In this document: positions 5,981 to 64,000 of the stretch, piece by piece | How the letters are laid out: every line of letters starts with the position of its first letter | Position numbering within the stretch: position 1 is the first letter of the stretch | Virus record (IMG/VR): IMGVR_UViG_3300037755_000512 | Source of the DNA: a virus | Length of the DNA stretch: 64,000 bases | Direction: 5' to 3' (one strand) | The notes under the pieces: model-generated | Told to the model about the DNA's origin: nothing | Databases searched by the model: none | Seen by the model: only the letters and a program-made list of their open reading frames with translations | Position numbers and translations under genes: made by a program

Positions 5981-6979
5981 ATGAACGTACTGAATAAGCA
6001 CGGTCTGGAGCTGATCCCGACGCATGACATGTCGCGTGAAGAGTGGTTAATGAGAAGAAGGGAGGGTATAGGGGGTTCTGACATGGGCACTATAATGGGT
6101 GCCAACAAAAACTTCTCAAGATTGGAACTTTTCTATCAGAAATGCGGAGCGATCTCTGAGAGCGTTGAACAAAACTCCCCTATGTTCTGGGGGTCAGTGT
6201 TGGAGGAGAATGTCAGGGATATTGCTCAGTATCTCGACATGGAAACCGGTGAATATATCTCCAATTATGAGGCTGGGAATAAATTGAGGAAGCTGTCTGC
6301 ATTTAAGTACATGGTCAAAAATCCTTCCTATCCTTGGTTGATCGCTAACGTGGACGCCTTGGAGGGATTCAAGCCCAGATCATTTAAGGCAGAGGGAATC
6401 GGTGAGATTAAAACCATCTCCCGTCAGTCAGCTGAGATGTGGGAAACCTTCCCAATCTATCACTGGTTTCAGGTTGAAATGTACCACACGGTACTCAAGC
6501 CGATACTTACCACGGATGACAACAAAATATTTTATCTGGAGGACGGCAGGATACTTAGGGGTTTTGGTGTGTCTTGGTCTGAATCAATTTGCGATATCAT
6601 GCTCACTGAGTCACACGACTTTTGGGAGTTGGTTAAAAAAGGAAAGGAGATAGTTAGAAACACGCCAGAAAAAGATAAGCAACTGACCTACCTCTCACAG
6701 ATCGAACCAGAGCCAGAAGGGACACAGGTTTATCTGGACTTCTTGTCTGACCTGTACAAGATGAAGCTCAACTACAAGACAATAAAAGGCAACGAGAAAG
6801 ATAAGGATCACGCGATGACTTACGTCATGCTGGGCAGGGAAATGACCGAGCTTAAAAAACAAAGGGATTTGTCAAGAGTACACATCATTAAACGACTCAA
6901 GGATGAGAGTGCTAACGTCATGAAGTTTGACGACAAAGGAAAAATCACATACAACAGAAAGCTTTATGTTAACATCTAA
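5981..6979 (+). CDS. YqaJ-like viral recombination exonuclease (PD-(D/E)XK)
   Basis: N-terminal EWLMRRREGIGGSDMGTIMGANKNFSRLELFYQK matches the YqaJ/lambda-exonuclease-family signature; sits beside the SSB gene. Confidence 0.7.
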   Translation: MNVLNKHGLELIPTHDMSREEWLMRRREGIGGSDMGTIMGANKNFSRLELFYQKCGAISESVEQNSPMFWGSVLEENVRDIAQYLDMETGEYISNYEAGNKLRKLSAFKYMVKNPSYPWLIANVDALEGFKPRSFKAEGIGEIKTISRQSAEMWETFPIYHWFQVEMYHTVLKPILTTDDNKIFYLEDGRILRGFGVSWSESICDIMLTESHDFWELVKKGKEIVRNTPEKDKQLTYLSQIEPEPEGTQVYLDFLSDLYKMKLNYKTIKGNEKDKDHAMTYVMLGREMTELKKQRDLSRVHIIKRLKDESANVMKFDDKGKITYNRKLYVNI

Positions 6980-26500: not shown

Positions 26501-27024
26501 CCATAAAATAGCTTCTCGAATGTAGGCGGAAGGGTAGGCCCTCTATGAATAACTAAAATCTCCTCTTCCTTGACAGGCGGAGTTACGGCATGTCTTGTTC
26601 TGTGAATGCAACGTGGTTTGTTAAAATTGTCTGTCAGGAATATAAGGTCACCAGCGATTCCTCCTCCGTTAATTCTATGCTCCTTCAATGGGCTGAAGTT
26701 CAATCCAGACCATGTTATTACATTTGTAACTACATCTTTATTTAACTCAAGGACACAATTCTTGTCGGGGTCCGTGTTATAGAAACAAAGAAAATGTACA
26801 TCGTCAGTTACAGACCTGATACCCCCTATAAACTTGGAGTTTGTGTCAAGAAAAGATCCTGTATTAACAACAGTAGTCCCACGAACATTCTCAATAGCGC
26901 CTCTTTGGGAGGCCTGAGAACGACCGGAAATAAAGTTGGCCGCGAACTGATAGTCATCAGGAGATAAAATCTCAACCGAATCGTCGGTATTGAGACCACC
27001 AGTAAACGTTCTGATTTGTTCCAT
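23575..27024 (-). CDS. tail fibre/tailspike-like protein (1149 aa)
   Basis: Large beta-rich ORF with poly-Thr linker and a GVSPSPVGETGTV module shared with the 265-aa protein at 27764-28561. Confidence 0.6.
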   Translation of the reverse strand: MEQIRTFTGGLNTDDSVEILSPDDYQFAANFISGRSQASQRGAIENVRGTTVVNTGSFLDTNSKFIGGIRSVTDDVHFLCFYNTDPDKNCVLELNKDVVTNVITWSGLNFSPLKEHRINGGGIAGDLIFLTDNFNKPRCIHRTRHAVTPPVKEEEILVIHRGPTLPPTFEKLFYGDELGSYTESSTTTTTLSVTTTIDPSLPQRGNIVINGNVYTYNSFSSNTFAGVSPSPVGETGTVKVHEYILANLINDFSFQYAYHYEYYDNQISVLSPYSSLCTRSVIQEDYKKVRVTIPADEEIPVKVKEIVISARVNNTGSFFEIGRLKRSAGVFDVLYFDFYNNTNGNLLDPFLSQPYSLVPRRAGSMSLSKSRLWMGNILEGYDTPEDVDLEYGIEVAESATPSTYSVYTLVKKTYEALGNGPPWKWILISTETVVWDTSFQYIIKRDGVIDVVEYTPTWGTGDAPLSRHSGFTNIPQSDYTSQTPPPSPHAGGEQYYTYTYVLTQADVLVNFNPLLSDLEGTKTFPSDSSYKLGILYSDSEGQKCGVLTKESLQIDTPDRKVNSIKINWSLSTHDNIPSWADTFSIVLTKNLKKSWFVENYSIDVHYYRVKSDSSEDIYHGDGSNLYKNYPYVRVNIKNFPLNGLSYSFVEGDRILLKQVGTSTKYDLDLVIKSFDGEYLLCERGDMEVPLTELAYNEIEIYRPITTGGADVVFYEIGHTYKIIQTSTTPLFSVTSGVIEGDTVITGREVYVQNTEVEKTDTSAAFKTISLDNNSIWNTDIGRPFIQTPVGEVLKSAYFRHSATFIAGTKINGLSDFDSGDEGNIPVESGTIQRLQSTNKEATEGDVLLAVSNSDTYSIYIDEARLTTGTSSFLIGATKVVGDVRKQKSGFGTLHPESVHEEDGYVYFFDKLSRSFCRYATNGIFPISEYKAVTHFEDQAALNSEDDEVVTGYDPFYKILFVTFTNAATNTRKTIGWSLVKERWISFFDFAPEGYVVGSNSMYSIKGGVLYKHNDTVNNNRFYGVDFDSMVELSFNDGPDFVKEWLSLGVGCSPNLYAFNGVDQKVITNGLKTDVYNRHNQTTDILWDEFEVNENMVYGEIRGDKNTGGVLDGDTMYSNTAQCRITMLSGINKYLLYAKVGFEVSRGHEL

Positions 27025-41037: not shown

Positions 41038-43332
41038 TTACACAATTTTGGGCGCGTTTGCTTTTTCCTTAGATTTAATCAATGCAGTTTCTCTGGTAGC
41101 ATCAGCAGCAGTTTGCGCTACCGTTTTCTTTGCCTCGTTCTGCTCAGAAGATACTCCACCCTTCAGTTCCCATTCGCGTTCTAACAGAACCAATTTCCAT
41201 TGATTCTCCTTATCCACAAGAGTGCCTTTAACCATAGCCTCAAGCTCAAACGTTTTCCTTTTCTCTTCTTCTGCTGCCCGAGCGGCTATGGCAGATGCTT
41301 CGGCATTACCCATTTTGTCTGCCTGAGCAAGGGCCGCTTGTTTTTCTTGGTTCTTCTGAATTCTGAACGCAAGCAGCAGCTCCGCTTGCTTTAAGTTCCG
41401 GACACGCTTAATCGCTATCGAGTCTGCAATTGTTATTTGTCCTGACTGAATAGCAAGGTTGATCATATTTTGTAAATTAATCTTCTCTTCGCTGTCAGCG
41501 TCATACTCAATTGCAATTCCATAAATTCTATGCAGCGGACCTTCATCTTGCTTAAGACTCTTGATATTTGATGGAGCAACTATGTTTCTGTAAACAGAGT
41601 TCTTTTTGAAGGTCATCGAATCATGCACTCTTACCGCTATCTCGTCTGCCAGAACTTCAATCAAGTATCTCTCCGCCATTAACAGGTGGTGGAGCGCGTT
41701 AGATGTTGCTTCTTGGGCCAGTCCAGCCACCCCATTTAGAAGTTTGGGGTCTGGCGTAGATCCATCGGTAACCTCATTCATACCTATAAGTCCAGCCATG
41801 TAAGACATGAACTTGTCTATTACAGCAAAGTACTCTGCGGCCTCAGTCCCAAGACCGTTCTTCAATTCCTCAATAGGCCTGTAGTTTGATGCTGTACCAT
41901 CTGGTGCCAGCTTTCTATACACCAGCACACCGGTCTGTGTAAACATGTCAAGAATAGACAGGGGCGACATGGCGGCGGATTCATCCCCACCCTCACCTAG
42001 TGATATATCCTCAAGGGCTCCGATTTCAATCAGAATACCTTTAGGTCTCGCTTTCGCTATTACGTTTTGAAGTTTGTACCACGCCAGAACAACCTGATCA
42101 ACAATTGGCATCATTTGCTCAATCATTGGGTTGGTCTCCATAGCGTTTAGCTCAGGAGCTACAGCCAAGTAACTTAGCCTTGTGTCCCAGATGTGAGAAT
42201 CTTTCCTGTAGACATCAGACTTCAGGCCATAGTTGAACATTATGTCAGTGTCAATGATCCATTTATGCCTATACACAACAATATCGGTATCCGAATAATA
42301 CTCTCGATCAGATTTCCTTGATGGTCCCTCCACTCCTCCTATGACCGGATTACCCCTTTTGTCCCACCTCTTTTCGTACCAGTATTTATTGCATGACAAG
42401 AACTCGCCGTCATACACGGGTATCTTTACACTGTCGTAGGCGAAAGACCCAATAGCGCCAACAGAATAACTGTTCTTATTTCCATGATTCCCTATGTGCT
42501 TTTGGGCAATACTCTCAAGCTGATCCTCACTCACATCAACACCACTCGCCTTGCACTCTCTCCTTATTTCATCAATAGTCATTAACACCGCTTCGCCTGC
42601 ATACCAGATGTCTTTGAAGTATGGATCGAGGGTAGGGGAGACAATAAAATTATTTGGATTAACAACCCTAAACCCAACCTTGCCAGTCTCAAGGTCAGTG
42701 AAGGCCTTGAAGATAGCCACCCCAGAATCAAACAGCCTATCACGTATAACCGTCAAGGCCTCTTTTATTCTGCCGTCAGTAAATACAGCGTCCACCTTTT
42801 TCTCAATGTCAATGGCCATGTTGTGCTTGTAACCAAACTCCATTTTGATAGCCAGCTCTTCTTCTTCTATTGGTTGGTCAAACTCTCCACTCGATAACAC
42901 ATCAACCGGCAGCCCTAGCTCGGTGAGCATATCACGAACTTTGATGTTTGCCTGCTCTGTTGCCTCATAGTCCAATTTGTCCTCAAGCGCATAGTTGTCA
43001 ATGGCTTGAGCGTTAATTACAAAATCGATCTTTGAGTGTTTGTTATTGATGATTCTCTTGAACCTTGGAATGATTGCCGGTGGAGACAAATCCAGATTAA
43101 CAAAAGATGTGTTCGTATCGTCAGATACCTCAAACATTGGTTTGTATATGTCGTTAGGCTGTTTCCCAAGAGAATAAAGCCTGTTGAGATTGTACCTATC
43201 GGCACCCTTGTTGAAGCTTTTTATCGACTGATTGTCGAATTCCTCCCAGATAGCCTTGATCATCTGGAGCATCCACTTCTCACCCTTTTCTTTTGGGTTG
43301 ACGTAATGATTTGGAAAGGTGTAATTTGCCAT
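41038..43332 (-). CDS. putative portal protein
   Basis: 764-aa ORF directly downstream of the large terminase gene with overlapping stop/start; assignment by size and synteny. Confidence 0.5.
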   Translation of the reverse strand: MANYTFPNHYVNPKEKGEKWMLQMIKAIWEEFDNQSIKSFNKGADRYNLNRLYSLGKQPNDIYKPMFEVSDDTNTSFVNLDLSPPAIIPRFKRIINNKHSKIDFVINAQAIDNYALEDKLDYEATEQANIKVRDMLTELGLPVDVLSSGEFDQPIEEEELAIKMEFGYKHNMAIDIEKKVDAVFTDGRIKEALTVIRDRLFDSGVAIFKAFTDLETGKVGFRVVNPNNFIVSPTLDPYFKDIWYAGEAVLMTIDEIRRECKASGVDVSEDQLESIAQKHIGNHGNKNSYSVGAIGSFAYDSVKIPVYDGEFLSCNKYWYEKRWDKRGNPVIGGVEGPSRKSDREYYSDTDIVVYRHKWIIDTDIMFNYGLKSDVYRKDSHIWDTRLSYLAVAPELNAMETNPMIEQMMPIVDQVVLAWYKLQNVIAKARPKGILIEIGALEDISLGEGGDESAAMSPLSILDMFTQTGVLVYRKLAPDGTASNYRPIEELKNGLGTEAAEYFAVIDKFMSYMAGLIGMNEVTDGSTPDPKLLNGVAGLAQEATSNALHHLLMAERYLIEVLADEIAVRVHDSMTFKKNSVYRNIVAPSNIKSLKQDEGPLHRIYGIAIEYDADSEEKINLQNMINLAIQSGQITIADSIAIKRVRNLKQAELLLAFRIQKNQEKQAALAQADKMGNAEASAIAARAAEEEKRKTFELEAMVKGTLVDKENQWKLVLLEREWELKGGVSSEQNEAKKTVAQTAADATRETALIKSKEKANAPKIV

Positions 43333-45358
43333 TCTTTTTTAGTTTATATCTTCTTTGAAACTTGTTGGGGTTAATTCTTCCCCTGCTTTGTAGTGTTTGA
43401 TGACGGCGCTTAATTCTTTTGGCCGCAATCAAAGCGTACCCCGACGCCATGCCTAGGTCAAACTTTTCAGTGTCATCAAGCTTAAAATCCTTCCAATCTC
43501 TCAATAGTTCTGGATGGTTTACCCTGTGGCAATGCTCGTCTATAAATAATTCCGTATGCTCTACAATTGATTGGTGAGACTTGGTTGACGCAGAAATGCC
43601 CTCGTTTCCTTTTTCATCAACCATGATAAACGCCGCATAACCCCTGTCATGGAAATACGCTCTGATCCCCTGCTTCTGATCTTCAAACAGCATCTGACAT
43701 CCGAAATAATGGCAGAGCTTAATCATGTCCTCGTAAAATATCGCCGCAGTTTGTGGTCGGTTTGCGTAGATAGCCACAAAGTTATCTGAGTCACCCTGAT
43801 CGAACGGATCAAACTTTCTGTATACCGCCGCAGCCCCTTTAGAAAATCTCCCTGTCTTAGTCCTGTTGTGATCGTATGGGTCAATTCCAATTACGAAATG
43901 AAGTATGTTCTTTGGGATCACATTAGTTCCTCGGATATGTACATTGTTTGCCTTATCCGGATCCTCGAATATCCAGCTAAACTGGAATCTTCCCTTCGAT
44001 GTTTTTACCAGCTTTACTTTTGTTTTTTCTTCATCCTCCCATAACAGATCGTATCTGGTTTCGTAATCTTTCTTCCAATTCAACAAGTCAAGACGGTCAT
44101 CTATTTTGATCGCGTTGTATAAACAGTTGTCGCCATCAGTTCTGAAGGCTTCCTGCCATGTAGTCGGGTTTTTGCGGATGAAAGAAGCGAGTGCCCTCGG
44201 ATCATCTATAAGATCCAGTCTCCTCTTCATTAAGTGTTCCAGTCCTCTCTTGCTATCAGGAATCCCGTACTTATCAAGGTAGATCATATCCTGAGCCGGA
44301 GTAAAGAATCTGTACAGTCCAGATTTAGTCCTGCTGTCAGACTGTCTCTTGCTTTGATCTGAGTCTTTCCATAATTGCTCGTAAGACTCAAGGTATCCTT
44401 CCATATCTTCTACGGTGGAAGTATAAATAGCCTTACCTAAAATTGTCCATCCATCTGAGTCTTCGAAACACGGCTTAACCTGATAGTGCCTCTTCAAAAC
44501 GTCAAGATCTATTGTCTTGAACACCTCGTCACACATGTATCTGGTTAGTTTCTCTCCGTCATAAGCCTCAGGTTTTGAGTTTCTATAATTGATCAACGAC
44601 TCTAATTCTGAATCGACATCGTACTGGTTTGAATCTAACTCTCCCCTCTTAGAAGATTTATAGAATCTTAATTCCCTCTTCGGCACATCGCCCTGAGACC
44701 TGTCGTATTGTGGTTTGAAAAAGTCTGGCAGTTTTCTGAAGGGCTGAACACACGCCTTTCCAAACACACTCTTTGCGTCCGCCTCGACCTTTGACTGGAT
44801 GCCGGACCACGAGTTAGGAACCCTTGTGGCATGTTCAGTAATGAAGCATCCTGCCCAAAAAGTTTTTCCAATCCGACGTTTAGTTATCTCAATTAGCCCA
44901 TAAGCATCAGGATCATTAACCACATAATCAGTTATGTAGGCTTTTTTTAAGTCTGGAAGACGAAACTTCGGCAGCCCAATATCTATCCGCCAGTGCGTGA
45001 GGTAGTAATAGTACAACCCTGTCAAATAAGTCATCTTTCCATTGTTCAGGAACCAAGCCCCGAACTTGCGACGATGCCATTCTCTGGCTCTGTACTTTTG
45101 AAGATCAGTGTCAACGTAGTTGGCATCAAGTCTCTTCATCTCCTTCTCCCTTGACATTCTACGGGAGTAATCCTTTGACGGGGTGGGTGGCTCCCAGAAT
45201 TGCTCGGTCTTAATTGTAGACCGAACTATTACATCGGTGTCGTCAAGCCTTCCTGTTTCATAATTCCACACCTTTCCTTCTGGTGGTAAATACACCCTTA
45301 TAGCAAGGTCTCCCTCGCCAACAACCATCGATGACCCTCCTTTAATTTTATTGTACAT
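43280..45358 (-). CDS. terL: terminase large subunit
   Basis: 692-aa ORF; ATPase-like ...ITKRRIGKTFWAG... and a nuclease-domain-like VIGIDPYDH acidic motif; first gene of the structural operon. Confidence 0.55.
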   Translation of the reverse strand: MYNKIKGGSSMVVGEGDLAIRVYLPPEGKVWNYETGRLDDTDVIVRSTIKTEQFWEPPTPSKDYSRRMSREKEMKRLDANYVDTDLQKYRAREWHRRKFGAWFLNNGKMTYLTGLYYYYLTHWRIDIGLPKFRLPDLKKAYITDYVVNDPDAYGLIEITKRRIGKTFWAGCFITEHATRVPNSWSGIQSKVEADAKSVFGKACVQPFRKLPDFFKPQYDRSQGDVPKRELRFYKSSKRGELDSNQYDVDSELESLINYRNSKPEAYDGEKLTRYMCDEVFKTIDLDVLKRHYQVKPCFEDSDGWTILGKAIYTSTVEDMEGYLESYEQLWKDSDQSKRQSDSRTKSGLYRFFTPAQDMIYLDKYGIPDSKRGLEHLMKRRLDLIDDPRALASFIRKNPTTWQEAFRTDGDNCLYNAIKIDDRLDLLNWKKDYETRYDLLWEDEEKTKVKLVKTSKGRFQFSWIFEDPDKANNVHIRGTNVIPKNILHFVIGIDPYDHNRTKTGRFSKGAAAVYRKFDPFDQGDSDNFVAIYANRPQTAAIFYEDMIKLCHYFGCQMLFEDQKQGIRAYFHDRGYAAFIMVDEKGNEGISASTKSHQSIVEHTELFIDEHCHRVNHPELLRDWKDFKLDDTEKFDLGMASGYALIAAKRIKRRHQTLQSRGRINPNKFQRRYKLKKNGKLHLSKSLRQPKRKG

Positions 45359-46146: not shown

Positions 46147-46395
46147 CTAAACTCTGTTCTGGCCCTCGACATTTCTGGCAACCCTGTCAAGGGTTCTTTT
46201 GTTGAGCCACATTAGGGCCTCCTCAAGTTTTGTTATGGCTAAAGAATTTTCACGACAAGAAAATTTTTTATTCAGGTAATTCAGTCTGTCTATCAATATA
46301 GCAATAAATGCCAAAGAGCAATACCAATGAGCTTCTTTGATAAGCATTACGGAAAGGCTGTCTTTAATCCAGACTAAAGACAGGATCAACATCAA
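46147..46395 (-). CDS. hypothetical protein
   Basis: 82-aa ORF. Confidence 0.3.
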   Translation of the reverse strand: MMLILSLVWIKDSLSVMLIKEAHWYCSLAFIAILIDRLNYLNKKFSCRENSLAITKLEEALMWLNKRTLDRVARNVEGQNRV

Positions 46396-48894: not shown

Positions 48895-49277
48895 AAATCG
48901 GTTGTTACAGTCATTACATCATTAAAATCTAAGTAGGCGTAGATTGCTTTTTCAACCCTCTTGAGCCTATTGTGTTGAGGGGCATCAAAGACGTCTATGA
49001 ATATTTTTCCCTTCAGTTTTTCTTCCGCCAACGATCTGAGGTCCTTTGTTTTTGCAGCGTACTGCAATCCGTTAAGAGTAAAAGCAACCATTCTGACGTC
49101 GGAGTACAACCATCCCAATTCTCCATTTTGGTCTTTCACCTCCACCTCAAACACTAGCCGTCCAGTTAAATCGCCCAGCCAATAAGCCTCAAAACTCACC
49201 CTAGCTTTTATAGGGATGCTCTGATCGGCCTTGGCCACCAAGTCAAGGCAGTGCATAAATGAATCTTTAAGAAACAT
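48891..49277 (-). CDS. hypothetical protein (target of the leader-proximal CRISPR spacer)
   Basis: 128-aa ORF; protospacer at 48968-48997. Confidence 0.45.
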   Translation of the reverse strand: MFLKDSFMHCLDLVAKADQSIPIKARVSFEAYWLGDLTGRLVFEVEVKDQNGELGWLYSDVRMVAFTLNGLQYAAKTKDLRSLAEEKLKGKIFIDVFDAPQHNRLKRVEKAIYAYLDFNDVMTVTTDL

Positions 49278-51180: not shown

Positions 51181-51257
51181 CGCGGAGCGATCCACAAAGA
51201 GAGAGGTTACCCGCCTTGGAAGCGGGGTTATTGCAAGTTCGAGTCTTGCCTTCGCGA
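51181..51257 (+). tRNA. tRNA-Pro (anticodon TGG), irregular D-arm
   Basis: Hand-folded: acceptor cgcggag/cttcgcg, anticodon arm cccgc-cttggaa-gcggg, T-arm gcaag-ttcgagt-cttgc; D-arm lacks the usual GG and pairs poorly. Confidence 0.4.
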
Positions 51258-51327
51258 CGGAACGTATTTCTGGCTCGAGTCCAGACGAAGGTCGGTCAGG
51301 GATTTCTGTAGTGTAATCGGCAACACG

Positions 51328-51412
51328 CGTTCATATCCTGATCCGCCAGAGCTGGGACTGTCTGTAAAACAGTTGCCTTCTGGCTGAGTGGGTTCGAATC
51401 CCACGTGATGGA
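51328..51412 (+). tRNA. tRNA-Tyr-like (anticodon GTA), long variable arm; 5' end uncertain
   Basis: Anticodon arm actgt-ctgtaaa-acagt at 51357-51373, T-arm gtggg-ttcgaat-cccac at 51386-51404; could not pair a clean acceptor stem. Confidence 0.3.
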
Positions 51413-51419
51413 CTAATAT

Positions 51420-51492
51420 TTCTGGTTAGTATAACGGCAAGTACGCCTGACTTTGACTCAGGTATCTGTCAGTTCGACTCCGACCTTTCACC
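51420..51492 (+). tRNA. tRNA-Gln-like (anticodon TTG), acceptor stem apparently unpaired (possible pseudo-tRNA)
   Basis: D-arm gtat-aacggcaa-gtac, anticodon arm cctga-ctttgac-tcagg, T-arm gtcag-ttcgact-ccgac; the 5'/3' ends do not form a 7-bp stem. Confidence 0.3.
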
Positions 51493-51555
51493 CTTAATGG
51501 AAAATATTATTTACAATAAACGGCTGTTTTTGTAAAGAATATTTGACAACACTAT

Positions 51556-51600
51556 CCTCCTGTAGTTTAACTGGTCGGGGTTCGAATCCCCGCAGGAGGC
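51556..51600 (+). other. 45-nt tRNA-like minihelix (acceptor stem + consensus T-arm only)
   Basis: cctcctg ... cgggg-ttcgaat-ccccg caggagg c: perfect 7-bp acceptor-like stem plus canonical GGTTCGAATCC T-loop, with no D or anticodon arm. Confidence 0.3.
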
Positions 51601-51621
51601 CTGAGAGGATTGCAAAAAAGA

Positions 51622-51710
51622 GCCCCAGTGATGGAATTGGCGAGACATGTCAGATTTAGACTCTGATGCGAAATAACAGTAGCGTGTAGGTTCGGGTCCT
51701 ACTTGGGGTA
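51622..51710 (+). tRNA. tRNA-Leu (anticodon TAG), type II
   Basis: Acceptor gccccag/ttggggt (2 G-U), D-stem atg/cat, anticodon arm tcaga-tttagac-tctga, long variable arm, T-arm gtagg-ttcgggt-cctac. Confidence 0.55.
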
Positions 51711-51715
51711 CTTAT

Positions 51716-51805
51716 AGGCTCATGGTGAAAACGGTAAACACGTCAGGCTTAAACCCTGATGCGAACTAAAAAATAAGCTTGCCGGTTCGAGTCCGGCTGG
51801 GCCTA
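51716..51805 (+). tRNA. tRNA-Leu (anticodon TAA), type II
   Basis: Acceptor aggctca/tgggcct, D-stem gtg/cac with GG loop, anticodon arm tcagg-cttaaac-cctga, long variable arm, T-arm gccgg-ttcgagt-ccggc. Confidence 0.55.
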
Positions 51806-51941
51806 CTATATGGAGAGTAAACCTGCTAGGGTAGGGGCGCTCTGCTAAGGCGCACGTGCGGTAATACGCATGTGGATCATGACCACTGCTCTCCGCGTTC
51901 ATTACAGTAAACGAACGTTTACTAATTTTGTTTAATGTTAC

Positions 51942-52024
51942 GGAGGTCGTCCGAATGAACGAGGACACTATTTTGAAAACAGCTGGGCTTAACGGCTTTG
52001 GGGGTTCGATTCCCTTGGCCTCCG
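51942..52024 (+). tRNA. tRNA-like gene, identity unresolved
   Basis: Acceptor ggaggtc/ggcctcc and T-loop ttcgatt present; anticodon arm could not be resolved by hand. Confidence 0.3.
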
Positions 52025-52159
52025 CTGACCAAGGGATATATTAAAGATGTTAAGAGAAGGGATGGAGCTCTACCCCCCACCCTTCCATTCATTGTATGCT
52101 TTTAAATATATAACCGCAAAAACACTAAAAAATATATGCTTTTACGTCGGTCTCCCCAG

Positions 52160-52226
52160 AGTTCATGGTGAGATTCGAACTCACGCTTCGAGTTTTGCAG
52201 ACCCGATTTTGCACCGAGCCATGAAC
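52160..52226 (-). tRNA. tRNA-Cys-like (anticodon GCA) with a shortened D region
   Basis: Minus strand: acceptor gttcatg/catgaac, anticodon arm cgggt-ctgcaaa-actcg, T-arm gtgag-ttcgaat-ctcac; only ~14 nt where a D-arm should be. Confidence 0.25.
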
Positions 52227-52354
52227 TTAAAAAAACCCCACAAGGTGCGCTTGGATCAGAGGCGTATGGGGTGTGTTGGGCGACAGGAGAGGGTTGAAGC
52301 AAAAGACTCGTTCTTGGGGCGCTGTTCTTATGGGTGAGCGTGGCGAGTACTTCG

Positions 52355-52426
52355 TGCAAAGGGCTGGAGTCGAACCAACGGCCACCGGCTTTTCAGACCG
52401 GCACTCTACCACTGAGTTACCGATGC
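52355..52426 (-). tRNA. tRNA-Phe (anticodon GAA); acceptor stem has 2 central mismatches
   Basis: Minus strand: gcatcgg-ta-actcagtggtagagt..., anticodon arm ccggt-ctgaaaa-gccgg, T-arm gttgg-ttcgact-ccagc, 3' acceptor cctttgc. Confidence 0.45.
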
Positions 52427-52435
52427 AATTTAGTA

Positions 52436-52522
52436 GCGGAGGTGGGAATCGAACCCAGTAGAAGTGCTTATGAGACACCCAAGCTCACCAGAGCTGCCTA
52501 CAACCGCAATTTTGTAGTGATG
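52436..52522 (-). tRNA. tRNA-Met/Ile-like (anticodon CAT); acceptor pairing not found
   Basis: Minus strand: D-stem aggc/gctt, anticodon arm ggtgt-ctcataa-gcact, T-loop ttcgatt; possible pseudo-tRNA. Confidence 0.25.
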
Positions 52523-52595
52523 ATAGGTTACGATCCTACTCTCTCGAACGTATCAGATTCGCGCTTTCCCGATTAAGCTACATCACTATTTTTAG

Positions 52596-52670
52596 TTCCG
52601 CCGGTGGGAATCGAACTCACTTTTTGTCTGGTTAAAAGCCAGAAGCAATACCAAATTTTGCTACGACGGA
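52596..52670 (-). tRNA. tRNA-Lys (anticodon TTT)
   Basis: Minus strand: acceptor tccgtcg/cggcgga, anticodon stem ctgg/ccag with loop cttttaa, T-arm gtgag-ttcgatt-cccac. Confidence 0.5.
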
Positions 52671-52851
52671 GTAAACCTTGTCGTAGTCCTTTTTATTTGT
52701 TTTCATATTAGCTTTTGTTTGCTGTTACTATTTTTAACCTTTAATGTAACAATCTTGTTAGTTACAACTTTGTTAGTTGGCCCTGCGGGTACCGATCCCA
52801 CGCCCTGTTCATTATGAGTGAACTGCTCCTCCATTAAGCTAAGGGCCGATG

Positions 52852-52923
52852 AACTCCTGTCGGGATTCGAACCCGAACTGATGAGGTAGAAACACATAGT
52901 TCTTCCGATTAAACTACAGGAGT
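52852..52923 (-). tRNA. tRNA-Arg-like (anticodon TCT)
   Basis: Minus strand: perfect acceptor actcctg/caggagt, D-stem agtt/aact, anticodon loop tttctac, T-arm tcggg-ttcgaat-cccga. Confidence 0.4.
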
Positions 52924-52957
52924 TTATTAGAATAATCTATGTCTTCTTCTTTCCATG

Positions 52958-53030
52958 AGGTCCCTCAGAGAATCGAACTCTGTATCTTCTGGTTACAAAT
53001 CAGTGGCATCGCCAGCAATGCTTAGGAACC
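52958..53030 (-). tRNA. tRNA-like gene, anticodon unresolved
   Basis: Minus strand: acceptor ggttcct/agggacc, D-stem gcat/atgc, T-arm cagag-ttcgatt-ctctg; anticodon arm irregular (ctg-atttgtaac-cag). Confidence 0.3.
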
Positions 53031-53055
53031 TTTTTATTTCGCATTTCGCGAATTG

Positions 53056-53127
53056 CACGGGTGGTAGGACTCGAACCTACAGTCACGGTTTTGGAGACCG
53101 TTGGTTTACCGATTAACCGACACCGGT
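53056..53127 (-). tRNA. tRNA-Trp (anticodon CCA)
   Basis: Minus strand: D-stem ggtt/aacc, anticodon arm acggt-ctccaaa-accgt, T-arm gtagg-ttcgagt-cctac; one C-C mismatch in the acceptor stem. Confidence 0.5.
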
Positions 53128-53161
53128 GTTTTGAGAGGTTGTAAATGCAATCCTCTCGGTG

Positions 53162-53233
53162 AGGGAAGGGAATGATTCGAACATTCGTAAGGCACATTAA
53201 CAGTGTGCTGCCTGACCACTAGGCTACCAACCC
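53162..53233 (-). tRNA. tRNA-Asn (anticodon GTT); acceptor has 2 U-U mismatches
   Basis: Minus strand: gggttgg-ta-gcct-agtggtc-aggc, anticodon arm gcaca-ctgttaa-tgtgc, T-arm gaatg-ttcgaat-cattc. Confidence 0.45.
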
Positions 53234-53242
53234 TTTTTATTG

Positions 53243-53315
53243 CAGTACTGACGGGAGTCGAACCCGCTCCGTTCTTCGTGACAGGAAGACATCTTATCCA
53301 TTTGACCTCAGCACT
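53243..53315 (-). tRNA. tRNA-Asp (anticodon GTC)
   Basis: Minus strand: acceptor agtgctg/cagtact, anticodon arm tcttc-ctgtcac-gaaga, T-arm gcggg-ttcgact-cccgt. Confidence 0.5.
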
Positions 53316-53425
53316 GTGATAGTCCGACAGGGTCGAGCGGTTGACCTGACGCTTTTGATCCGCAACTCCCAGTTGAATGTACGCTTTACTGGGCACGTCA
53401 TTTCGACCCTGTCGGAACTTTGTTG

Positions 53426-53500
53426 TGGAACCATAGGGGATCGAACCCTACTCGCGGATCTTGCAAGGATCTGCCGCCAAGCCGAGGAACATGTGGCCCC
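53426..53500 (-). tRNA. tRNA-Ala (anticodon TGC)
   Basis: Minus strand: acceptor ggggcca/tggttcc (2 G-U), anticodon loop cttgcaa, T-arm taggg-ttcgatc-cccta. Confidence 0.45.
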
Positions 53501-53673
53501 AAATTAAAAAGCTCCAGATTTTACTTTGGAGCTTTTTTGTCGACATCTATTCACCTTACTAAATGAGTTGCTCCAATGGAATACCTCCCTTGCCCCAATT
53601 AATTGTGGCGCCGTTCATTCTCGCGATATTAAAGCAACTCATTTTCATTTCATGTAGTTTTATACCAAAAATA

Positions 53674-53720
53674 TATACATCATATCTGTCAGGGGACTTG
53701 TGAAGTCCCCTGACAGATAT
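53674..53720. promoter_or_regulatory. perfect 19-bp inverted repeat with 9-bp loop (bidirectional terminator or recombination/regulatory site)
   Basis: catcatatctgtcagggga-cttgtgaag-tcccctgacagatatgatg. Confidence 0.6.
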
Positions 53721-53807
53721 GATGTCATTGCCTTTTGATAGCTTTCAAACTCATCGTTAGAAGCGTAATTCAATTGGATAGAGCGTCGTTGGTGGTAACA
53801 CGGTTAG

Positions 53808-53882
53808 TACTGCTGACGAGACTCGAACTCGCTAGTACACGCCTTGAAAGGGCGCGGCCTCGACCACTTCGGCTTCAGCAGC
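53808..53882 (-). tRNA. tRNA-Glu (anticodon TTC)
   Basis: Minus strand: acceptor gctgctg/cagcagt, anticodon arm gcgcc-ctttcaa-ggcgt, T-arm gcgag-ttcgagt-ctcgt. Confidence 0.45.
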
Positions 53883-59040: not shown

Positions 59041-59418
59041 TTGCAGAAAATGCAAGTAATTAAAGATATACTTAGATCTATCACCTGTGATGTCATGGGG
59101 ACGACTGTACAAATAAACGTACACGTCGACAAGACATACGGTTCCAGATTATACCTACAAGCAAGCTACGTGGCGCCATGCACGAAAACTGGGGGATCTG
59201 AGCCGTGGTTTGGCCGGAAATGGTACCTGTCGTCACACATGACCAGAGACGAAGTGGTAAAGACCGCATTCGCTGCATTTAAGGCAGCTGTTGAGCATGA
59301 GGTCATGGAGGGATTTAAGTTCAACGGGAAGATTGTGTTTAATCCGCATGTGTCTTTTGAGGCCCTGCTAAGCATAACGGATCAGGAAGTTTCGCGTCAC
59401 ATAGTTGAAAAAAGATGA
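59041..59418 (+). CDS. hypothetical protein
   Basis: 125-aa ORF. Confidence 0.4.
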   Translation: MQKMQVIKDILRSITCDVMGTTVQINVHVDKTYGSRLYLQASYVAPCTKTGGSEPWFGRKWYLSSHMTRDEVVKTAFAAFKAAVEHEVMEGFKFNGKIVFNPHVSFEALLSITDQEVSRHIVEKR

Positions 59419-60035
59419 TTGATAACATAGACATAATAAAGCCATTATTGAGTTTCGATGATGAGGGTGATTTTTACATGCTATATATATTTGTACGCAA
59501 GAAAGATCAGACCACGGACAAGGCGAATCACCAGTCAGTGAGGACAATCAAATCGTACTGCATTGACTCGACTGAACATTTGGAGAAACGGTACGATGAG
59601 ATAAAAAAGTTGGCAGAAATGTTTCGTGCAAGGGTGTATATCCATATTCAAAAACAAAACCACAAGGACGTGGCGATGGATATGATTGTTGCGATTGCCG
59701 ATAGAATTAAGTCGGGCCAAATTAATCAGAAATATGTTTTTGATTCTGTCGTTGGAAGCGTTAAGGCGAGGGAGAAAAGATGGATTGTTGATGTTGATGT
59801 CGATAAGTTTAATGGATCGAACGCAGAGATGGCATTTTATATAAACGTGCATTGTATGCCGTTTTATCAAAGAAAAATAATCTCTGTTGTTCCAACGCCA
59901 AATGGAGTTCATTTAATAACTAAGGGGTTTGATGTAGCAAAATTCAAAGAGAGGTACCCATACATCGAGATACATAAGAAAAATCCGACGCTGTTGTATT
60001 ATCCGGAGAGCTTGAACGAGTCTGGAGAGGGTTGA
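59415..60035 (+). CDS. hypothetical protein (carries the degenerate target of the oldest CRISPR spacer)
   Basis: 206-aa ORF; imperfect protospacer at 59438-59468. Confidence 0.45.
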   Translation: MIDNIDIIKPLLSFDDEGDFYMLYIFVRKKDQTTDKANHQSVRTIKSYCIDSTEHLEKRYDEIKKLAEMFRARVYIHIQKQNHKDVAMDMIVAIADRIKSGQINQKYVFDSVVGSVKAREKRWIVDVDVDKFNGSNAEMAFYINVHCMPFYQRKIISVVPTPNGVHLITKGFDVAKFKERYPYIEIHKKNPTLLYYPESLNESGEG

Positions 60036-60038
60036 AAA

Positions 60039-60419
60039 ATGGAAGCTAACGAACTCCGCATAGGGAACATGGTAAAGTACTCCGATCAATTCGGGGAAGA
60101 TTTTGATTTTGTGATAGAAATCGGTAGTGAATCTTGTCTGTTGGAGAATTACGGAGAGCTGTTTTATTATAATGGTCTTGAACCCATCCTTCTTACTCCT
60201 GAATGGCTGGAAAGAGCTGGTTTTGAATTAAAAGGAAGTCGTTATTACCACCATAAGTATAGTGGTCTGCCATTAGAATTTGAATTGGGTGCTTGGTTCT
60301 TAAAAATTGATGACCACCCCTATGCTGAACCCCTGTATGTACATCAGCTCCAAAACCTTTATTTCGCACTTACAGGAGAAGAGTTGAGTTTTAATTTAAA
60401 TCAATTTAAAAGAAAGTAA
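60039..60419 (+). CDS. hypothetical protein
   Basis: 126-aa ORF. Confidence 0.45.
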   Translation: MEANELRIGNMVKYSDQFGEDFDFVIEIGSESCLLENYGELFYYNGLEPILLTPEWLERAGFELKGSRYYHHKYSGLPLEFELGAWFLKIDDHPYAEPLYVHQLQNLYFALTGEELSFNLNQFKRK

Positions 60420-60600
60420 TGGCAGACATATCCATGTGCGATAATGCCTTGCGCCCCCTCAGAGAGGGTTTGTTAACTTGGTAAAGAAGATGTAGTGCTC
60501 AAACATCTCTTGGAATCTTCCTTGGCTGGGGGGCAAGAAGTGTTTACTGGGTGAGCATGGAGAAATTAATTTAACCGAAATTTAACCTAACATTAATATC

Positions 60601-60990
60601 ATGGATTTATCCAACAAACCGGCATTCATAAACAAACAAGAAGCACTTGAGCGCCTTACAGCCTTAGAGGCAGAAGCGAAGAAATTAAGAACCGTCATAG
60701 GAAGCGAACCAAAAAAATCAAAAGAAGAGCGATTTTGGGAGCTAATTCTTCGGACGGATTCGGTTAAAATGTGTAAGGAAACATATCCCAATTCAATTTT
60801 TGGGTTCAGGGGTGAGGATTTTTTGTGGGAGTACGATTCAGAAAATCGCCATCTATGGTTAAGTTATAGGCTTATTTGGTCGGTTCTTGAAGATGAATAC
60901 TCACTGCAACACCATGATATTCAGGCATATATAAAGACGGAGGTAGAACAGCGTTTCAAAACACAGGCTGTGACACCTAGACGTCTTTGA
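60601..60990 (+). CDS. hypothetical protein; the 3' end of the ORF runs into the first CRISPR repeat
   Basis: 129-aa ORF; last ~16 codons are translated repeat/spacer sequence (VEQRFKTQAVTP), so the real stop may be earlier or the gene may be disrupted by the array. Confidence 0.3.
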   Translation: MDLSNKPAFINKQEALERLTALEAEAKKLRTVIGSEPKKSKEERFWELILRTDSVKMCKETYPNSIFGFRGEDFLWEYDSENRHLWLSYRLIWSVLEDEYSLQHHDIQAYIKTEVEQRFKTQAVTPRRL

Positions 60991-61689
60991 TGCCCCTCAA
61001 CACAATAGGTAGAACAGCGTTTCAAAACACAGGCTGTGACACCCACACATCCTCGGGATGATCGATCAGTACTGGTAGAACAGCGTTTCAAAACACAGGC
61101 TGTGACACCCCAGCTTTCTATACACCAGCACACCGGTCTGGTAGAACAGCGTTTCAAAACACAGGCTGTGACACCATACTTAGGGGTTTTGGTGTGTCTT
61201 GGTCTGGTAGAACAGCGTTTCAAAACACAGGCTGTGACACCTACTTTTGAAGATCAGTGTCAACGTAGTTGGGTAGAACAGCGTTTCAAAACACAGGCTG
61301 TGACACCGGACCCCGACAAGAATTGTGTCCTTGAGTTGGTAGAACAGCGTTTCAAAACACAGGCTGTGACACCCACGCGCGGTCGAGTACGGTCATGCTA
61401 TAGGGTAGAACAGCGTTTCAAAACACAGGGTGTGACACCAGATTCCTTTCATGCAGGGCACAGCCAACAGGTAGAACAGCATTTCAAAACACAGGGTGTG
61501 ACACCTTTCAGCCGACCCATGAAACGAGACACGTATGGTAGAACAGCATTTCAAAACACAGGGTGTGACACCAAAGCCGTTATTGAGTTTCAATGATGAG
61601 GAGGTAGAACAGCTTTTCGGAGTAAAAATATCCACTAATGTCAAGTTTAAGGTATATAAAACTGGCAGAACAACACTTCAAAACGAAGA
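60942..61689 (+). CRISPR. CRISPR array: 10 intact 36-bp repeats (GGTAGAACAGCGTTTCAAAACACAGGCTGTGACACC), 30-31-bp spacers, plus 2 degenerate terminal repeats
   Basis: Read directly: repeats at 60942, 61008, 61074, 61140, 61206, 61272, 61338, 61404, 61470, 61537; repeats 8-10 carry point mutations and two further decayed copies start at ~61603 and ~61654, so the leader is at the low-coordinate end; no cas gene or anti-repeat seen in the window. Confidence 0.9.
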
Positions 61690-62275
61690 GGGGACGCCTG
61701 ATAGGTGTATCACGGACAAGGCGAGCAGGGTTGTTTCGATAAAAAGGTTAAGGTGATGTATTATGGGGCCAATTACAGGCACAGAGAACGACCACAGTTT
61801 TTAGGCGCAGGGGAAGCTGTGTTTTTGGAGATCTACCGCCACAGAGCCCCTGTTAAAGCCCTGCATGTCGTAATTCTTACGCGAGAATCTTAAGTGTTAA
61901 TTTTACCCAGGATTTGGGCTCCTACAAAAGTGGCGACCTATATACCTGACGGGGACGAAACGAAAAGGAAAAACGCGAATTTCGAGGGGGGTGGGGGTTC
62001 ATTTCTGGCAAAAAAAATAGGAAAATAGGGGAAATGAGAACGAAATTAAGGTATTGGATGGCAAGGCGAAATGACCGCACCGGTCTACCTTGGAAGGTTG
62101 ACCTAATAATGTAAACAGTTGATTATCAGTAGTATTGAGAGAAAAAACACGTTGTCTGACCTATAAACCAGACAACAAATACACATTGGGAATATGCAGC
62201 CATTCGGTTGCATATCCGCGTGTCCATATACCTAACAACCGCAACGCTATAATCCATCCCGATAGCCAGCACTGA

Positions 62276-62323
62276 AGTCAGCCTATAACCTGACAAACTA
62301 CGACCAAAAGTCAGCCTATAACC
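62276..62323. repeat. two direct copies of an 18-bp site with palindromic arms (GTCAGCCTATAACCTGAC), plus a variant at 62155
   Basis: agtcagcctataacctgaca ... agtcagcctataacctgacg; variant gtctgacctataaaccagac at 62155-62174 next to a CCAGACAAC iteron. Confidence 0.5.
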
Positions 62324-62420
62324 TGACGAAATCATCATAACTCGAACAAGCTTTTTCTAGCAACCAGAAAAATAATCTCATTGACTGTGATAAATTATTG
62401 GCAAACTAAACAACAAGACG

Positions 62421-62981
62421 ATGAAAACACCACATCCATCCGGCCAAGCATACAAAAAAATCATCCCATCCGACCGCAAGCATTACGAAAAACGGGCCAA
62501 AGTTTTCGCCGACAAGGCCAAAAGACGTATACACAAGCACCATAGAAAGACCTCGCAGGTATACCGAAACTGGAATATCCAAAAGGTTGGTATTGCGTAC
62601 TCCTATTATACGCTCGACGTGGCGATGGAACATACCCGCAAGGGATTCCAGCAACAGTATGGACAAAAACTTAGACCTGCCTCTATGAGGTTTCTTTGTT
62701 GCGTACATTCATATTGCGCATACACCAACCAAAGTACATTCACCTATACAGACCTGTATGACTGGATTGCAAAGCACGAACATGCACCACGGCTATTAAT
62801 ATTCACACCACGAGAGGTTTCTACCCGTATAGGGGAACTACTGAAGCTTCATTTTCTCAACCCTCTCCCGTACCATGCCTTCACTCCCACGCATCGCATG
62901 AACCTGATCATGAAAATGATGGAGAGTAACCATCGCATGATACTCGACAAGCATTTTCCAATAGACCAACCAGAAAAATAA
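62421..62981 (+). CDS. basic hypothetical protein (186 aa) flanked by ~30-50-bp direct repeats
   Basis: Lys/Arg/His-rich N-terminus; the 3'-terminal sequence caaccagaaaaataatctca[c/t]tgactgtga also occurs 30-60 bp upstream of its start (62361-62392 vs 62968-62999). Confidence 0.45.
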   Translation: MKTPHPSGQAYKKIIPSDRKHYEKRAKVFADKAKRRIHKHHRKTSQVYRNWNIQKVGIAYSYYTLDVAMEHTRKGFQQQYGQKLRPASMRFLCCVHSYCAYTNQSTFTYTDLYDWIAKHEHAPRLLIFTPREVSTRIGELLKLHFLNPLPYHAFTPTHRMNLIMKMMESNHRMILDKHFPIDQPEK

Positions 62982-63447
62982 TCTCACTGACTGTGAGCAA
63001 GTTACGCTCATCGCGTAAAAATTATTTGCGTATTGTTTTGGTGCTTTGAGTAAAACCTACGATCATTGCATATCGAATTGACGCAACAACGCGGGGGCCA
63101 GATGGGCCCACAATTCGCTCCCTCCTTTGAAGTGCTTAACTTCCCATGGTGTTACACGGATATTAACAGGTACACTAAGGACTCATAATAGTTTGCGGTC
63201 ATCGTTGTGAAACGTAGCGAGCAGGAGGCCTTCATAAGGTTTTTAAAAAGCACTTTGACCCGACAAACTGATGAGCGGGACATATTATACCCAAAACGCA
63301 AACTTACGAGGGGTGGTACCCTTTCTGGTAGATGTTCTAACCAGATTAAGTAAGGGAGATGCAGGGCCAAAGATCAATGCTAAAAGCATCGAAACATCCC
63401 ACTAGAAATAGTGGGTGGGTTTTTGTCAAACTAAAACATCAAAAACC

Positions 63448-64000
63448 ATGAAAACAATTTATTTGTATGACGGCCATTCGAACAAAGTTTCGTTTCAGTA
63501 CAATGATATTTCTGAGCTAAAATCAGAGCTAGAAAAAAGAAATATCACCATCGGAAACAGGGTCACCATCGGAGACGGGGCCACCATCGGAGACTGGGCC
63601 ACCATCGGATACGGGGCCACCATCGGATACAGGGCCACCATCGGATACGGGGCCAACATCGGAGACAGGGCTAGAATCGGAGACGGGGCCAGCATCGGAT
63701 ACAGGGCCACCATCGGAAACGAGGCCACCATCGGAGACAGGGCCACCATCGGAAACAGGGCCGGCATCGGAAACGAGGCCACCATCGGAGACGGGGCCAC
63801 CATCGGATACAGGGCCACCATCGGATACAGGGCCACCATCGGATACGGGGCCACCATCGGAGACTGGGCTAGAATCGGATACAGGGCCAACATCGGATAC
63901 AGGGTCACCATCGGAAACGAGGCCACCATCGGAAACGAGGCCACCATCGGAAACAGGGTCAGCGTCGGGTTCGAGGCCACCATCGGGGACTGGGCCACCA
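63448..64000 (+). CDS. hexapeptide-repeat (left-handed beta-helix-like) protein, 3'-truncated by the window end
   Basis: ATG at 63448 preceded by a TTTTGTCAAAC box; after ~35 aa the frame encodes >25 tandem [TA]IG[DNY]xA hexapeptides from an 18-bp DNA tandem repeat (accatcggaNacNgggcc). Confidence 0.45.
   Translation, partial: MKTIYLYDGHSNKVSFQYNDISELKSELEKRNITIGNRVTIGDGATIGDWATIGYGATIGYRATIGYGANIGDRARIGDGASIGYRATIGNEATIGDRATIGNRAGIGNEATIGDGATIGYRATIGYRATIGYGATIGDWARIGYRANIGYRVTIGNEATIGNEATIGNRVSVGFEATIGDWAT
63552..64000 (+). repeat. 18-bp tandem DNA repeat array (>=25 copies) underlying the hexapeptide-repeat ORF
   Basis: accatcggagacggggcc / accatcggatacagggcc ... continuing to the window edge. 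Confidence 0.8.

Follow-up and report, generated by a model that had tools for sequence, protein, structure and literature searches.

Does a phage gene that imperfectly matches the oldest spacer of a CRISPR array record an escape from host immunity? This question was raised by a 64,000-nucleotide (nt) stretch of the IMG/VR virus record IMGVR_UViG_3300037755_000512, here called the window, which holds a CRISPR-like array at 60942-61638 and, in a gene at 59415-60035, an imperfect copy of spacer 10 of that array. An earlier note had read the array as a host record of successive immunisations against this phage lineage, in which the newer spacers still match and the oldest target has escaped by mutation and by loss of its protospacer-adjacent motif (PAM). 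In the present study, the array and its targets were found to lie on one and the same phage genome, where units of 36 + 30 nt have accumulated at the 3' end of a phage gene, the majority of the spacers copying carrier DNA exactly beside a fixed motif. We consider it slightly better than an even chance that the array is an in-place outgrowth of this gene end, to which the Cas1-Cas2 of a host added spacers, and that the mismatches of spacer 10 reflect age, not escape.

Array structure and self-matching spacers

The array, on the plus strand, has the regular build of a CRISPR: ten full 36-nt repeats (GGTAGAACAGCGTTTCAAAACACAGGCTGTGACACC), seven of them identical, alternate with ten spacers, nine of 30 nt and one (spacer 9) of 31 nt. 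It ends in a terminal repeat, R11 (61603-61638, plus strand), which is repeat-like in its first 16 nt only, the remaining 20 nt being lost. A degenerate older repeat, R12 (GGCAGAACAACACTTCAAAACGAAGAGGGGACGCC; 61665-61699, plus strand), starts 26 nt past R11 and is about 26/36 identical to the repeat.

Seven of the ten spacers (1, 3, 4, 5, 6, 8 and 9) match the window perfectly, on both strands and at sites spread over the genome. The protospacer of spacer 1 lies at 48968-48997 (minus strand; 3' flank ggcTCAA), that of spacer 3 at 41907-41936 (plus; within the portal gene, antisense; gtgTAAA), that of spacer 4 at 6551-6580 (plus; RecE-like exonuclease gene; gaaTCAA) and that of spacer 5 at 45093-45122 (plus; large terminase gene, antisense; gcaTCAA). 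Those of spacers 6, 8 and 9 were located at 26744-26773 (minus; a crAss muzzle-like gene; aaaTAAA), 16126-16155 (minus; a gene of 1955 amino acids (aa); tgaTCAA) and 11352-11382 (minus; 31 nt, primase/helicase gene, antisense; aagTCAA), respectively. The motif NNNT(C/A)AA stands 3' of all seven perfect protospacers (p = 5e-14, with NNNT[CA]AA at 1.25% of window positions). The spacers were thus taken from mobile DNA beside a motif, as in CRISPR; the source, however, is the carrier genome itself. The statement that all newer spacers are perfect holds for seven of the nine, whereas spacers 2 and 7 gave no match at up to 6 mismatches within the window, nor at up to 8 mismatches in loci covering the 3.6 kb of the genome outside it. 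No spacer matched any phage in GenBank.

Relative to the genes, five protospacers are sense and three antisense, that is, without strand bias. The reverse complement of the repeat resembles Cas13b repeats, and a type VI-B (RNA-targeting) reading was set aside on account of this lack of bias. Furthermore, a scan of 60000-64000 with Rfam found no CRISPR direct repeat (CRISPR-DR), trans-activating CRISPR RNA (tracrRNA) or other known RNA family, and promoter and terminator scans gave no excess over shuffles. Over its first 21 nt, R12 departs from the repeat at four positions, each time by a transition (T>C, G>A, G>A, T>C); these changes would preserve G-U pairing of a minus-strand transcript with the plus-strand repeat RNA, as in an anti-repeat; no convincing tracrRNA tail or terminator was seen 3' of R12, and Rfam finds nothing there.

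Carrier genome

The carrier is a circular crAss-like phage genome of about 67.6 kb (source contig 67,582 bp), and the array is flanked by phage genes on either side. The window encodes an integrase, a RecE-like exonuclease, a primase/helicase, a portal, a large terminase, a crAss muzzle domain and a helix-turn-helix (HTH) repressor, and the phage is probably temperate. In the loci L081 and L109, the genes 3' of the array continue into those at the start of the window (a 186-aa gene, DUF932, Cpn10 and the integrase); this gene order closes the circle, so that the genome is circular or permuted. Look-ups with exact proteins recovered the same locus in many samples. Moreover, at least seven samples yielded contigs in which the array stands with its ten spacers and its repeat variants unchanged. 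These contigs were 100.000% identical to the window over as much as 22 kb, and in the other assemblies that cover them, protospacers 1, 3 and 5 were intact together with their motifs. The only variation of the array among samples was the absence of one unit (spacer 4 and one repeat) from locus L112 (ENA ERZ27256803). One phage genome carries the array as well as its targets, and a host junction or a chimeric contig was ruled out by the phage genes on both sides, the circular gene order and the recurrence of the same sequence in at least seven assemblies. On this ground the claim that a host array had recorded immunity is not supported, the array being placed inside a phage gene on the very genome that it targets. 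The large terminase had no close relative in IMG/VR, and GenBank held no phage similar at the DNA level.

A small open reading frame (ORF) at 46147-46395 (minus strand) matches the Pfam family PF24729, Acb2_Tad1_hairpin, an anti-CBASS and anti-Thoeris sponge family, which suggests that the phage carries counter-defence genes. One rival reading is that the array works for the phage, the Cas proteins of the host and CRISPR RNAs (crRNAs) from the array excluding related competitors or superinfecting copies while an anti-CRISPR, DNA modification or timing protects the phage itself. Virus-borne arrays directed against related viruses are known (PMC6858448; PMC11656645), and the integrase, the HTH repressor and at least one counter-defence-like gene (the Acb2/Tad1 hairpin match) would suit such a life. 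However, the known viral arrays avoid self-matches, while here seven of the eight matched spacers are fully identical to the carrier and stand beside the motif, and a DNA-targeting effector in a lysogen would cut the prophage. Selection for RNA targeting would have created a strand bias, the repeat evolves as protein-coding sequence (see below) and no host repeat was found. We regard a working array as distinctly unlikely.

Spacer 10 and its protospacer

Spacer 10 (AAAGCCGTTATTGAGTTTCAATGATGAGGA; 61573-61602, plus strand) is the oldest intact spacer of the array. Its imperfect protospacer at 59438-59467 (plus strand) matches at 27/30 positions, with mismatches at spacer positions 7, 20 and 30, and spans codons 8-18 of the gene at 59415-60035 (plus strand), which encodes a 206-aa protein of phrog_14949, a family of unknown function. 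The near-match that had been pointed out is real. No such match was obtained in 100 dinucleotide shuffles, the analytic estimate for three or fewer mismatches anywhere in 128 kb is about 1e-8, and in local alignment the likeness ends precisely at the borders of the spacer. A larger duplication of the 206-aa gene 3' of the array was rejected, since the flanks of a 14-mer common to 61711 and 59513 are random and 13-14-mers of the same kind recur at other places, as expected by chance.

The 206-aa protein carries an N-terminal motif, KPLLxFxxxGDFYM, that is conserved across Bacteroidota phages, and the spacer 10 site encodes its residues K9-P-L-L-S-F-D-D-E-G18, followed by D19-F20. The earlier note had proposed to ask whether the substitutions are synonymous, and the answer was mixed. 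The first is (CCA in the gene, CCG in the spacer, at Pro10), whereas the second exchanges Asp15 for Asn (GAT in the gene, AAT in the spacer) at a residue that is variable in homologues (E/D/T/S/N), and the third alters the second base of the Gly18 codon (GG in the gene, GA in the spacer). Of the 120 best database homologues, 119 have Gly18, and in the IMG/VR homologues G-D-F was invariant (80 of 80); given this near-invariance, the position-30 change most likely arose in the spacer, and the phage gene keeps the ancestral Gly.

The 3' flank of the site (59468-59474, plus strand) is TGATTTT and lacks NNNT(C/A)AA, as had been noticed. That a PAM was lost there is another matter. For T(C/A)AA to stand at flank positions 4-7, Phe20 would have to be replaced by Gln or Lys, and Phe20 is invariant in all 200 homologues (80/80 from IMG/VR and the 120/120 best database homologues), so that the motif most probably never existed at this site. 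Acquisition of a spacer without the motif would be unremarkable, given that about 63% of the spacers of the Flavobacterium columnare type II-C system have the canonical motif and about 37% do not (PMC8092290).

No intact version of the protospacer came to light. An exact 24-mer of spacer 10 was absent from IMG/VR and the JGI metagenomes, no variant of the 206-aa protein of 71-99% identity was present among 5.8 billion proteins, and the mismatched version stood in 18 of the 18 contigs read. The earlier note would have taken such uniformity as the sign of a chance near-match; the uniformity was indeed found, but the match is too good for chance.

The reading from which we started, that a host array records immunity and that the phage escaped the oldest spacer by protospacer mutation and PAM destruction while the newer ones still match, draws on real features: the polarity of the array and the source of its spacers fit, the PAM is absent, and the mismatches at positions 20 and 30 fall in the PAM-proximal 12 nt. 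Escape mutations against type II systems typically lie in these 12 nt. Nevertheless, a single phage genome carries array and targets alike, with neither cas genes nor host DNA; with Phe20 invariant and Gly18 near-invariant, loss of the PAM by a viable point mutation would be impossible, and the position-30 change most likely belongs to the spacer. Seven perfect, motif-flanked self-targets stand untouched, and neither an intact ancestral protospacer with a functional PAM in any collection searched nor a sign of interference pressure on the genome was found. The supposed gradient of mismatches is instead a step, from 0 mismatches in 211 nt to 3 in 30, with two unmatched spacers interspersed. Escape from a host record is therefore very improbable.

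Coding origin of the repeat

In a canonical CRISPR, leader and repeat are non-coding. Here, the leader position 5' of repeat 1 is occupied by the coding region of ORF P0001 (60601-60990, plus strand; 129 aa), which encodes a 113-aa domain followed in frame by repeat 1, translated as VEQRFKTQAVTP; a stop within spacer 1 terminates the protein. The 36-nt repeat codes for a motif, VE..FK....TP, that is conserved at the C-terminus of a large family of phage proteins, and homologues of P0001 at 48-63% identity end in the same motif, VE[ED]HFKCKG[VI]TP. The AlphaFold (AF2) model of P0001 is confident (predicted local distance difference test, pLDDT, 91.9); it had no neighbour in the PDB, and the protein had no hit to any PHROG or, above threshold, to any Pfam family. 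The GTDB genomes contained no relatives of the N-domain family.

The family presents the motif in states from single copy to array. Homologues P0004 and P0005 have the motif once and no array, as does the 23%-identical paralogue next door, which ends in ..F.YKGITP, and at the DNA level the 36 nt are single-copy without an array in loci L088 and L093. Loci L091 and L092 hold a single full repeat with one spacer of 30 nt and a partial repeat. A profile search for the family returned 1022 cluster representatives, and 109 of the 213 members examined have 2-6 in-frame units of 36 + 30 nt, these 213 being the top-scoring motif-bearing members from a search whose profile contained the motif, which enriches for multi-unit proteins. 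Of 173 intervals between units, 136 are exactly 22 aa (66 nt). In at least six further members the second repeat is read in a shifted frame (WKNIS), which implies a spacer length of 29 or 31 nt, and the five other members read at the DNA level, L108, L118, L119 and L121 among them, each have a 36-nt repeat specific to their lineage with spacers of 29-31 nt. Single-copy alleles, one-spacer alleles and common members with 2-6 units together present a local sequence that has been duplicated, as in neo-CRISPR formation. Furthermore, three of the four differences between the repeats of L092 and L093 are at synonymous third codon positions, so that the repeat evolves as coding DNA. The newest spacer of L118 has matches of 27-28/30 in the coding DNA of five related phage contigs that lack the repeats; the newest spacers of L060, L015 and L119 had no second copy in IMG/VR.

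Several further observations concern the family. P0006 (760 aa), P0008 and P0023 are fusions of 3-6 complete N-domains in a single reading frame, in which each N-domain of P0006 and P0008, and at least one of P0023, is followed by 1-3 motif-and-spacer units of its own. The repeat borders were compared in a small sample, namely the window, L088, L091, L092, L093, L108, L118, L119 and L121: the base 5' of the repeat is G in 9/9 lineages though at a synonymous third position (GAG/CAG/GGG/AGG), and in the repeat end, ACACC, the Thr codon is ACA in 7/7 lineages that have Thr there. These regularities hint at a constraint on the DNA of the repeat borders besides that on the protein. A second family (L015:11452-13350; also L008-L028, L057, L059, L060, L078 and L044) is encoded beside homologues of the 206-aa gene, with uninterrupted ORFs of up to 632 aa and more than 24 units of VEDTIQNGVKHT plus 10 variable aa in a 66-nt (36 + 30) period. 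Its unit content differs between the near-identical alleles L015 and L060, and L057 has two such genes in tandem. Kinship of the two families is unproven (hhalign probability 3.9%).

A translated repeat raises the suspicion of an ordinary protein tandem repeat falsely called as CRISPR, the variable 30-nt segments arising by template switching or gene conversion without any CRISPR machinery. Besides the coding repeat, this explanation can point to the L015 family, with its different, possibly related N-domain, in which a 632-aa ORF runs unbroken through more than 24 units with synonymous-type repeat variation, and to eight consecutive window spacers that are stop-free in frame (p about 0.02-0.08). 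Slippage, however, copies spacers and does not import new ones, whereas seven exact copies of 30-31 nt from scattered sites, each with the same 4-base motif at a constant offset of 3 nt, bear the signature of PAM-guided capture. Moreover, spacers of 29-31 nt break the frame, and the newest spacer brings stops. An ordinary tandem repeat is accordingly quite improbable.

Polarity and history of the array

The distal repeats differ from the others in an orderly way. Within R8-R10 (61404-61572, plus strand), C27G occurs in all three and G12A in R9 and R10, giving one change in R8 and two each in R9 and R10. Variants thus cluster at the old end, as had been reported, but they appear to be ancestral states, not decay. 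The family consensus is VEEHFKCKGVTP. R12 reads AEQHFKTKRGR, with the consensus His4 and Lys8 present, R10 and R9 read VEQHFKTQGVTP, R8 reads VEQRFKTQGVTP and R7-R1 read VEQRFKTQAVTP, so that the peptides of R8-R10 are closer to the consensus than those of R1-R7, and the series from R12 through R10/R9 and R8 to R7-R1 is a stepwise departure from it. Judged by these peptides, the distal variants are fossils of the older C-terminus of the gene. The same order supports a polarity in which 60942 is the new end and 61600 the old, units being made by copying the gene-proximal repeat. What stands of the proposed successive adaptation is this polarity, the serial uptake of spacers from this phage lineage beside a 3' motif and the position of spacer 10 as the oldest intact one; that the array is a host immune record is not supported.

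R9 and R10 are identical in sequence, and spacers 8 and 9 match perfectly. R11, in contrast, lacks 20 nt, and spacer 10 departs from its source at three positions. This indicates two epochs, an old one to which R12, R11 and spacer 10 belong, and a recent burst that gave spacers 9 to 1. The 31-nt spacer 9 shifts the frame (61506-61602), and in the shifted frame R10 again reads VEQHFKTQGVTP; spacer 10 in this same frame is KPLLSFNDEE, which is the frame of its source gene (KPLLSFDDEG). In proteins of the family, the shortened last repeat often appears as VEEHFK with 1-4 further residues and a stop.

The shortened terminal repeat brings in a further possibility, namely that part of an array with the same repeat, built by a host as immunity against this phage, entered the repeat-like end of the phage gene by recombination, for example as an excised repeat-spacer circle, spacer 10 being an old host spacer against an earlier or related phage variant. 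Recombination between phages and CRISPR arrays through spacers was reportedly described in staphylococci by Varble in 2019. A circle of 3' half-repeat, spacers and 5' half-repeat that recombines at the 5' half of a single phage copy gives the sharp terminal partial repeat observed, and spacers 2 and 7 do not match the phage. On the other hand, the repeat of each family member encodes in frame that member's own version of the protein motif, so that host repeats would need to fit every phage gene, and the distal repeats follow the phage protein's own ancestral peptides. A host array with this repeat was absent from every collection searched, and a look-up of the ORF inside the array, made in search of a host copy, matched the phage source contig only. 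Capture of a host array is, on balance, unlikely.

Proposed origin

The explanation that we favour is growth of the array in place. The array would be a tandem outgrowth of the 3' end of gene 60601-60990, built from units of 36 + 30 nt that were added singly at the gene-proximal end, each duplicating the motif-coding 36 nt of the time. The agent would be the Cas1-Cas2 of a Bacteroidota host, of a type II-like system with 36/30 geometry and a 3' spacer-acquisition motif that Cas9 probably selects. During infection, this host Cas1-Cas2 would treat the gene end as a leader-repeat junction and draw prespacers from the abundant replicating phage DNA beside NNNT(C/A)AA. From the persistence of perfect, motif-flanked self-targets it follows that interference either is blocked or is not guided by the products, and the transcripts of the array may accordingly be unused. 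Spacer 10 would be a motif-less insertion from the epoch before spacers 1-9 that has since drifted from its source, the gene side having changed only where the protein allows (one synonymous site and one variable residue) and the spacer side freely, as in the Gly codon.

Several results weigh against this explanation. No cas-like gene was found among the 39 window ORFs scanned, the three largest included, and the repeat was absent from 185,579 species genomes (GTDB), IMG/VR and the JGI metagenomes; with neither cas genes nor a host array, the part of a Cas integrase is inferred from the 36/30 geometry and the motif alone. The last repeat of seven arrays (the window, L091, L092, L108, L118, L119 and L121) keeps its 5' 11-30 nt, mostly 16-21, and then breaks off abruptly. 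Such a break is predicted neither by gradual decay nor by clean Cas1-Cas2 duplication, which should leave a full terminal repeat; it favours a recombinational origin of at least the founding unit. The spacers of L118, L119 and L121 gave no self-match in their own readable +/-10 kb, where about 1.6 were expected. All sampled genomes are one clone with zero single-nucleotide polymorphisms, so that long-term tolerance of self-matching spacers is not demonstrated, and the share of multi-unit proteins in the family is raised by the enrichment described above. The motif-adjacent end of the spacers faces away from the leader here, as it does in type II-A systems. In F. columnare II-C, by contrast, it faces toward the leader (PMC8092290).

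The outgrowth might also serve the phage. The P0001 family could be a spacer trap, its 3' end being maintained both as DNA and as protein so as to mimic a Bacteroidota leader-repeat junction and soak up Cas1-Cas2 integrations. The many phage genome copies would absorb integrations that would otherwise immunise the host, as an anti-adaptation counter-defence of which the arrays would be footprints. Arrays in about half of the members examined, the G before the repeat in 9/9 lineages, the ACA Thr codon in 7/7 and the likeness of the repeat end ACACC to the F. columnare motif ACAAC hint at such a function, which we nonetheless hold to be doubtful. In a weaker variant, the phage may exploit host spacer integration to diversify the C-terminal tail of P0001.

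Other features of the genome

A cluster of 14 tRNA genes lies at 51181-53882. At 63546-64000, an 18-nt tandem repeat of more than 25 copies encodes the hexapeptide repeat ATIGxx in a gene that runs past the end of the window, and its copy pattern differs between L109 and the window. The motif CAGACAAC occurs on both sides of the array, with direct and inverted copies near the integrase gene, and a TCTTTGTCAAA-type element lies directly 5' of several small genes, likewise on both sides. These two kinds of motif were located at 1868-1895, 3250-3314 and 62150-62176, and also at 130-160, 365-400 and 63415-63440; they are probably regulatory or recombination sites.

Discussion

The locus illustrates that a gradient of mismatches along an array should not be read as escape before it has been asked on which replicon the array lies and whether the missing PAM was ever possible. 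Three features deserve attention: a natural array built on a repeat that is the translated terminus of a conserved phage gene, spacers copied exactly from the genome that carries them, and recurrence across a family of more than 1,000 sequence clusters. If the process is driven by Cas proteins, this would be the first natural, large-scale case of an adaptation machinery writing into virus genomes, and the spacers would be a direct record of Cas1-Cas2 sampling during infection, free of selection by interference. Moreover, it would then become testable whether such gene ends are decoy integration sites, and whether CRISPR arrays arise from, or decay into, coding sequence. In practice, CRISPR finders will report arrays of this kind, and false host assignments in viromics could follow.

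With regard to known systems, the formation of neo-CRISPRs by Cas1-Cas2 at off-target leader- or repeat-like sites, reportedly described by Nivala and colleagues in Nature Microbiology in 2018, is said to be rare and to have been seen in Escherichia coli chromosomes and plasmids under overexpression of Cas1-Cas2. The term neo-CRISPR occurs in bioRxiv 10.1101/148544, and ectopic spacer acquisition is treated in PMC7999890. As there, a pre-existing non-CRISPR sequence is duplicated as the repeat at each insertion, and the spacers have normal length and motif. In contrast, the present case is natural, lies in coding sequence and recurs in one phage gene family (109 of the 213 members examined), and the mechanism does not predict the sharply shortened terminal repeat.

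Known virus-borne mini-arrays have repeats identical to those of the host and 1-2 spacers, which are directed at viruses that are related yet different (Medvedeva et al. 2019, PMC6858448; review PMC11656645). The window shares with them a repeat-spacer array on a virus, the lack of adjacent cas genes and spacers tied to its own lineage. It differs in having ten spacers, of which seven are exact self-matches with the motif (seven of the eight that matched are 100% identical to the carrier), a repeat that is the in-frame end of a conserved phage gene, and no host repeat that could be found. A further comparison is with RNA anti-CRISPRs (Racrs) and solitary repeat units of phages (Camara-Wilpert et al. 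2023, PMC10651486). Racrs are non-coding, contain no acquired spacers and work through binding to Cas proteins. They too are phage sequences that resemble CRISPR repeats, and the single-copy members of the P0001 family would look like solitary repeat units; the repeat of the window, unlike them, is translated, and its locus accumulates spacers.

In F. columnare, one adaptation module serves II-C and VI-B arrays with different repeats (Hoikkala et al. 2021, PMC8092290). The 36-nt repeats, the A-rich 3' motif past a gap of unspecified bases (NNNNNTAAA there, NNNT(C/A)AA here) and the Bacteroidota phage-host setting are alike, and the repeat end ACACC resembles the leader-distal motif ACAAC common to the II-C and VI-B repeats (PMC8092290). 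The gap, however, is 3 here and 5 there, and the receiving array is on the phage. Classical phage escape from type II systems likewise shows an imperfect protospacer, mismatches in the seed region and no PAM, whereas in the window the would-be PAM residues are invariant in 200 homologues, one mismatch is spacer-derived and the other, perfect targets show no escape.

None of these closest systems combines a translated repeat, family-wide recurrence and exact self-derived spacers, and no description of this combination was met in the literature searched. We therefore place the locus, with its mechanism inferred, as a previously undescribed variant of phage-borne CRISPR-like arrays.

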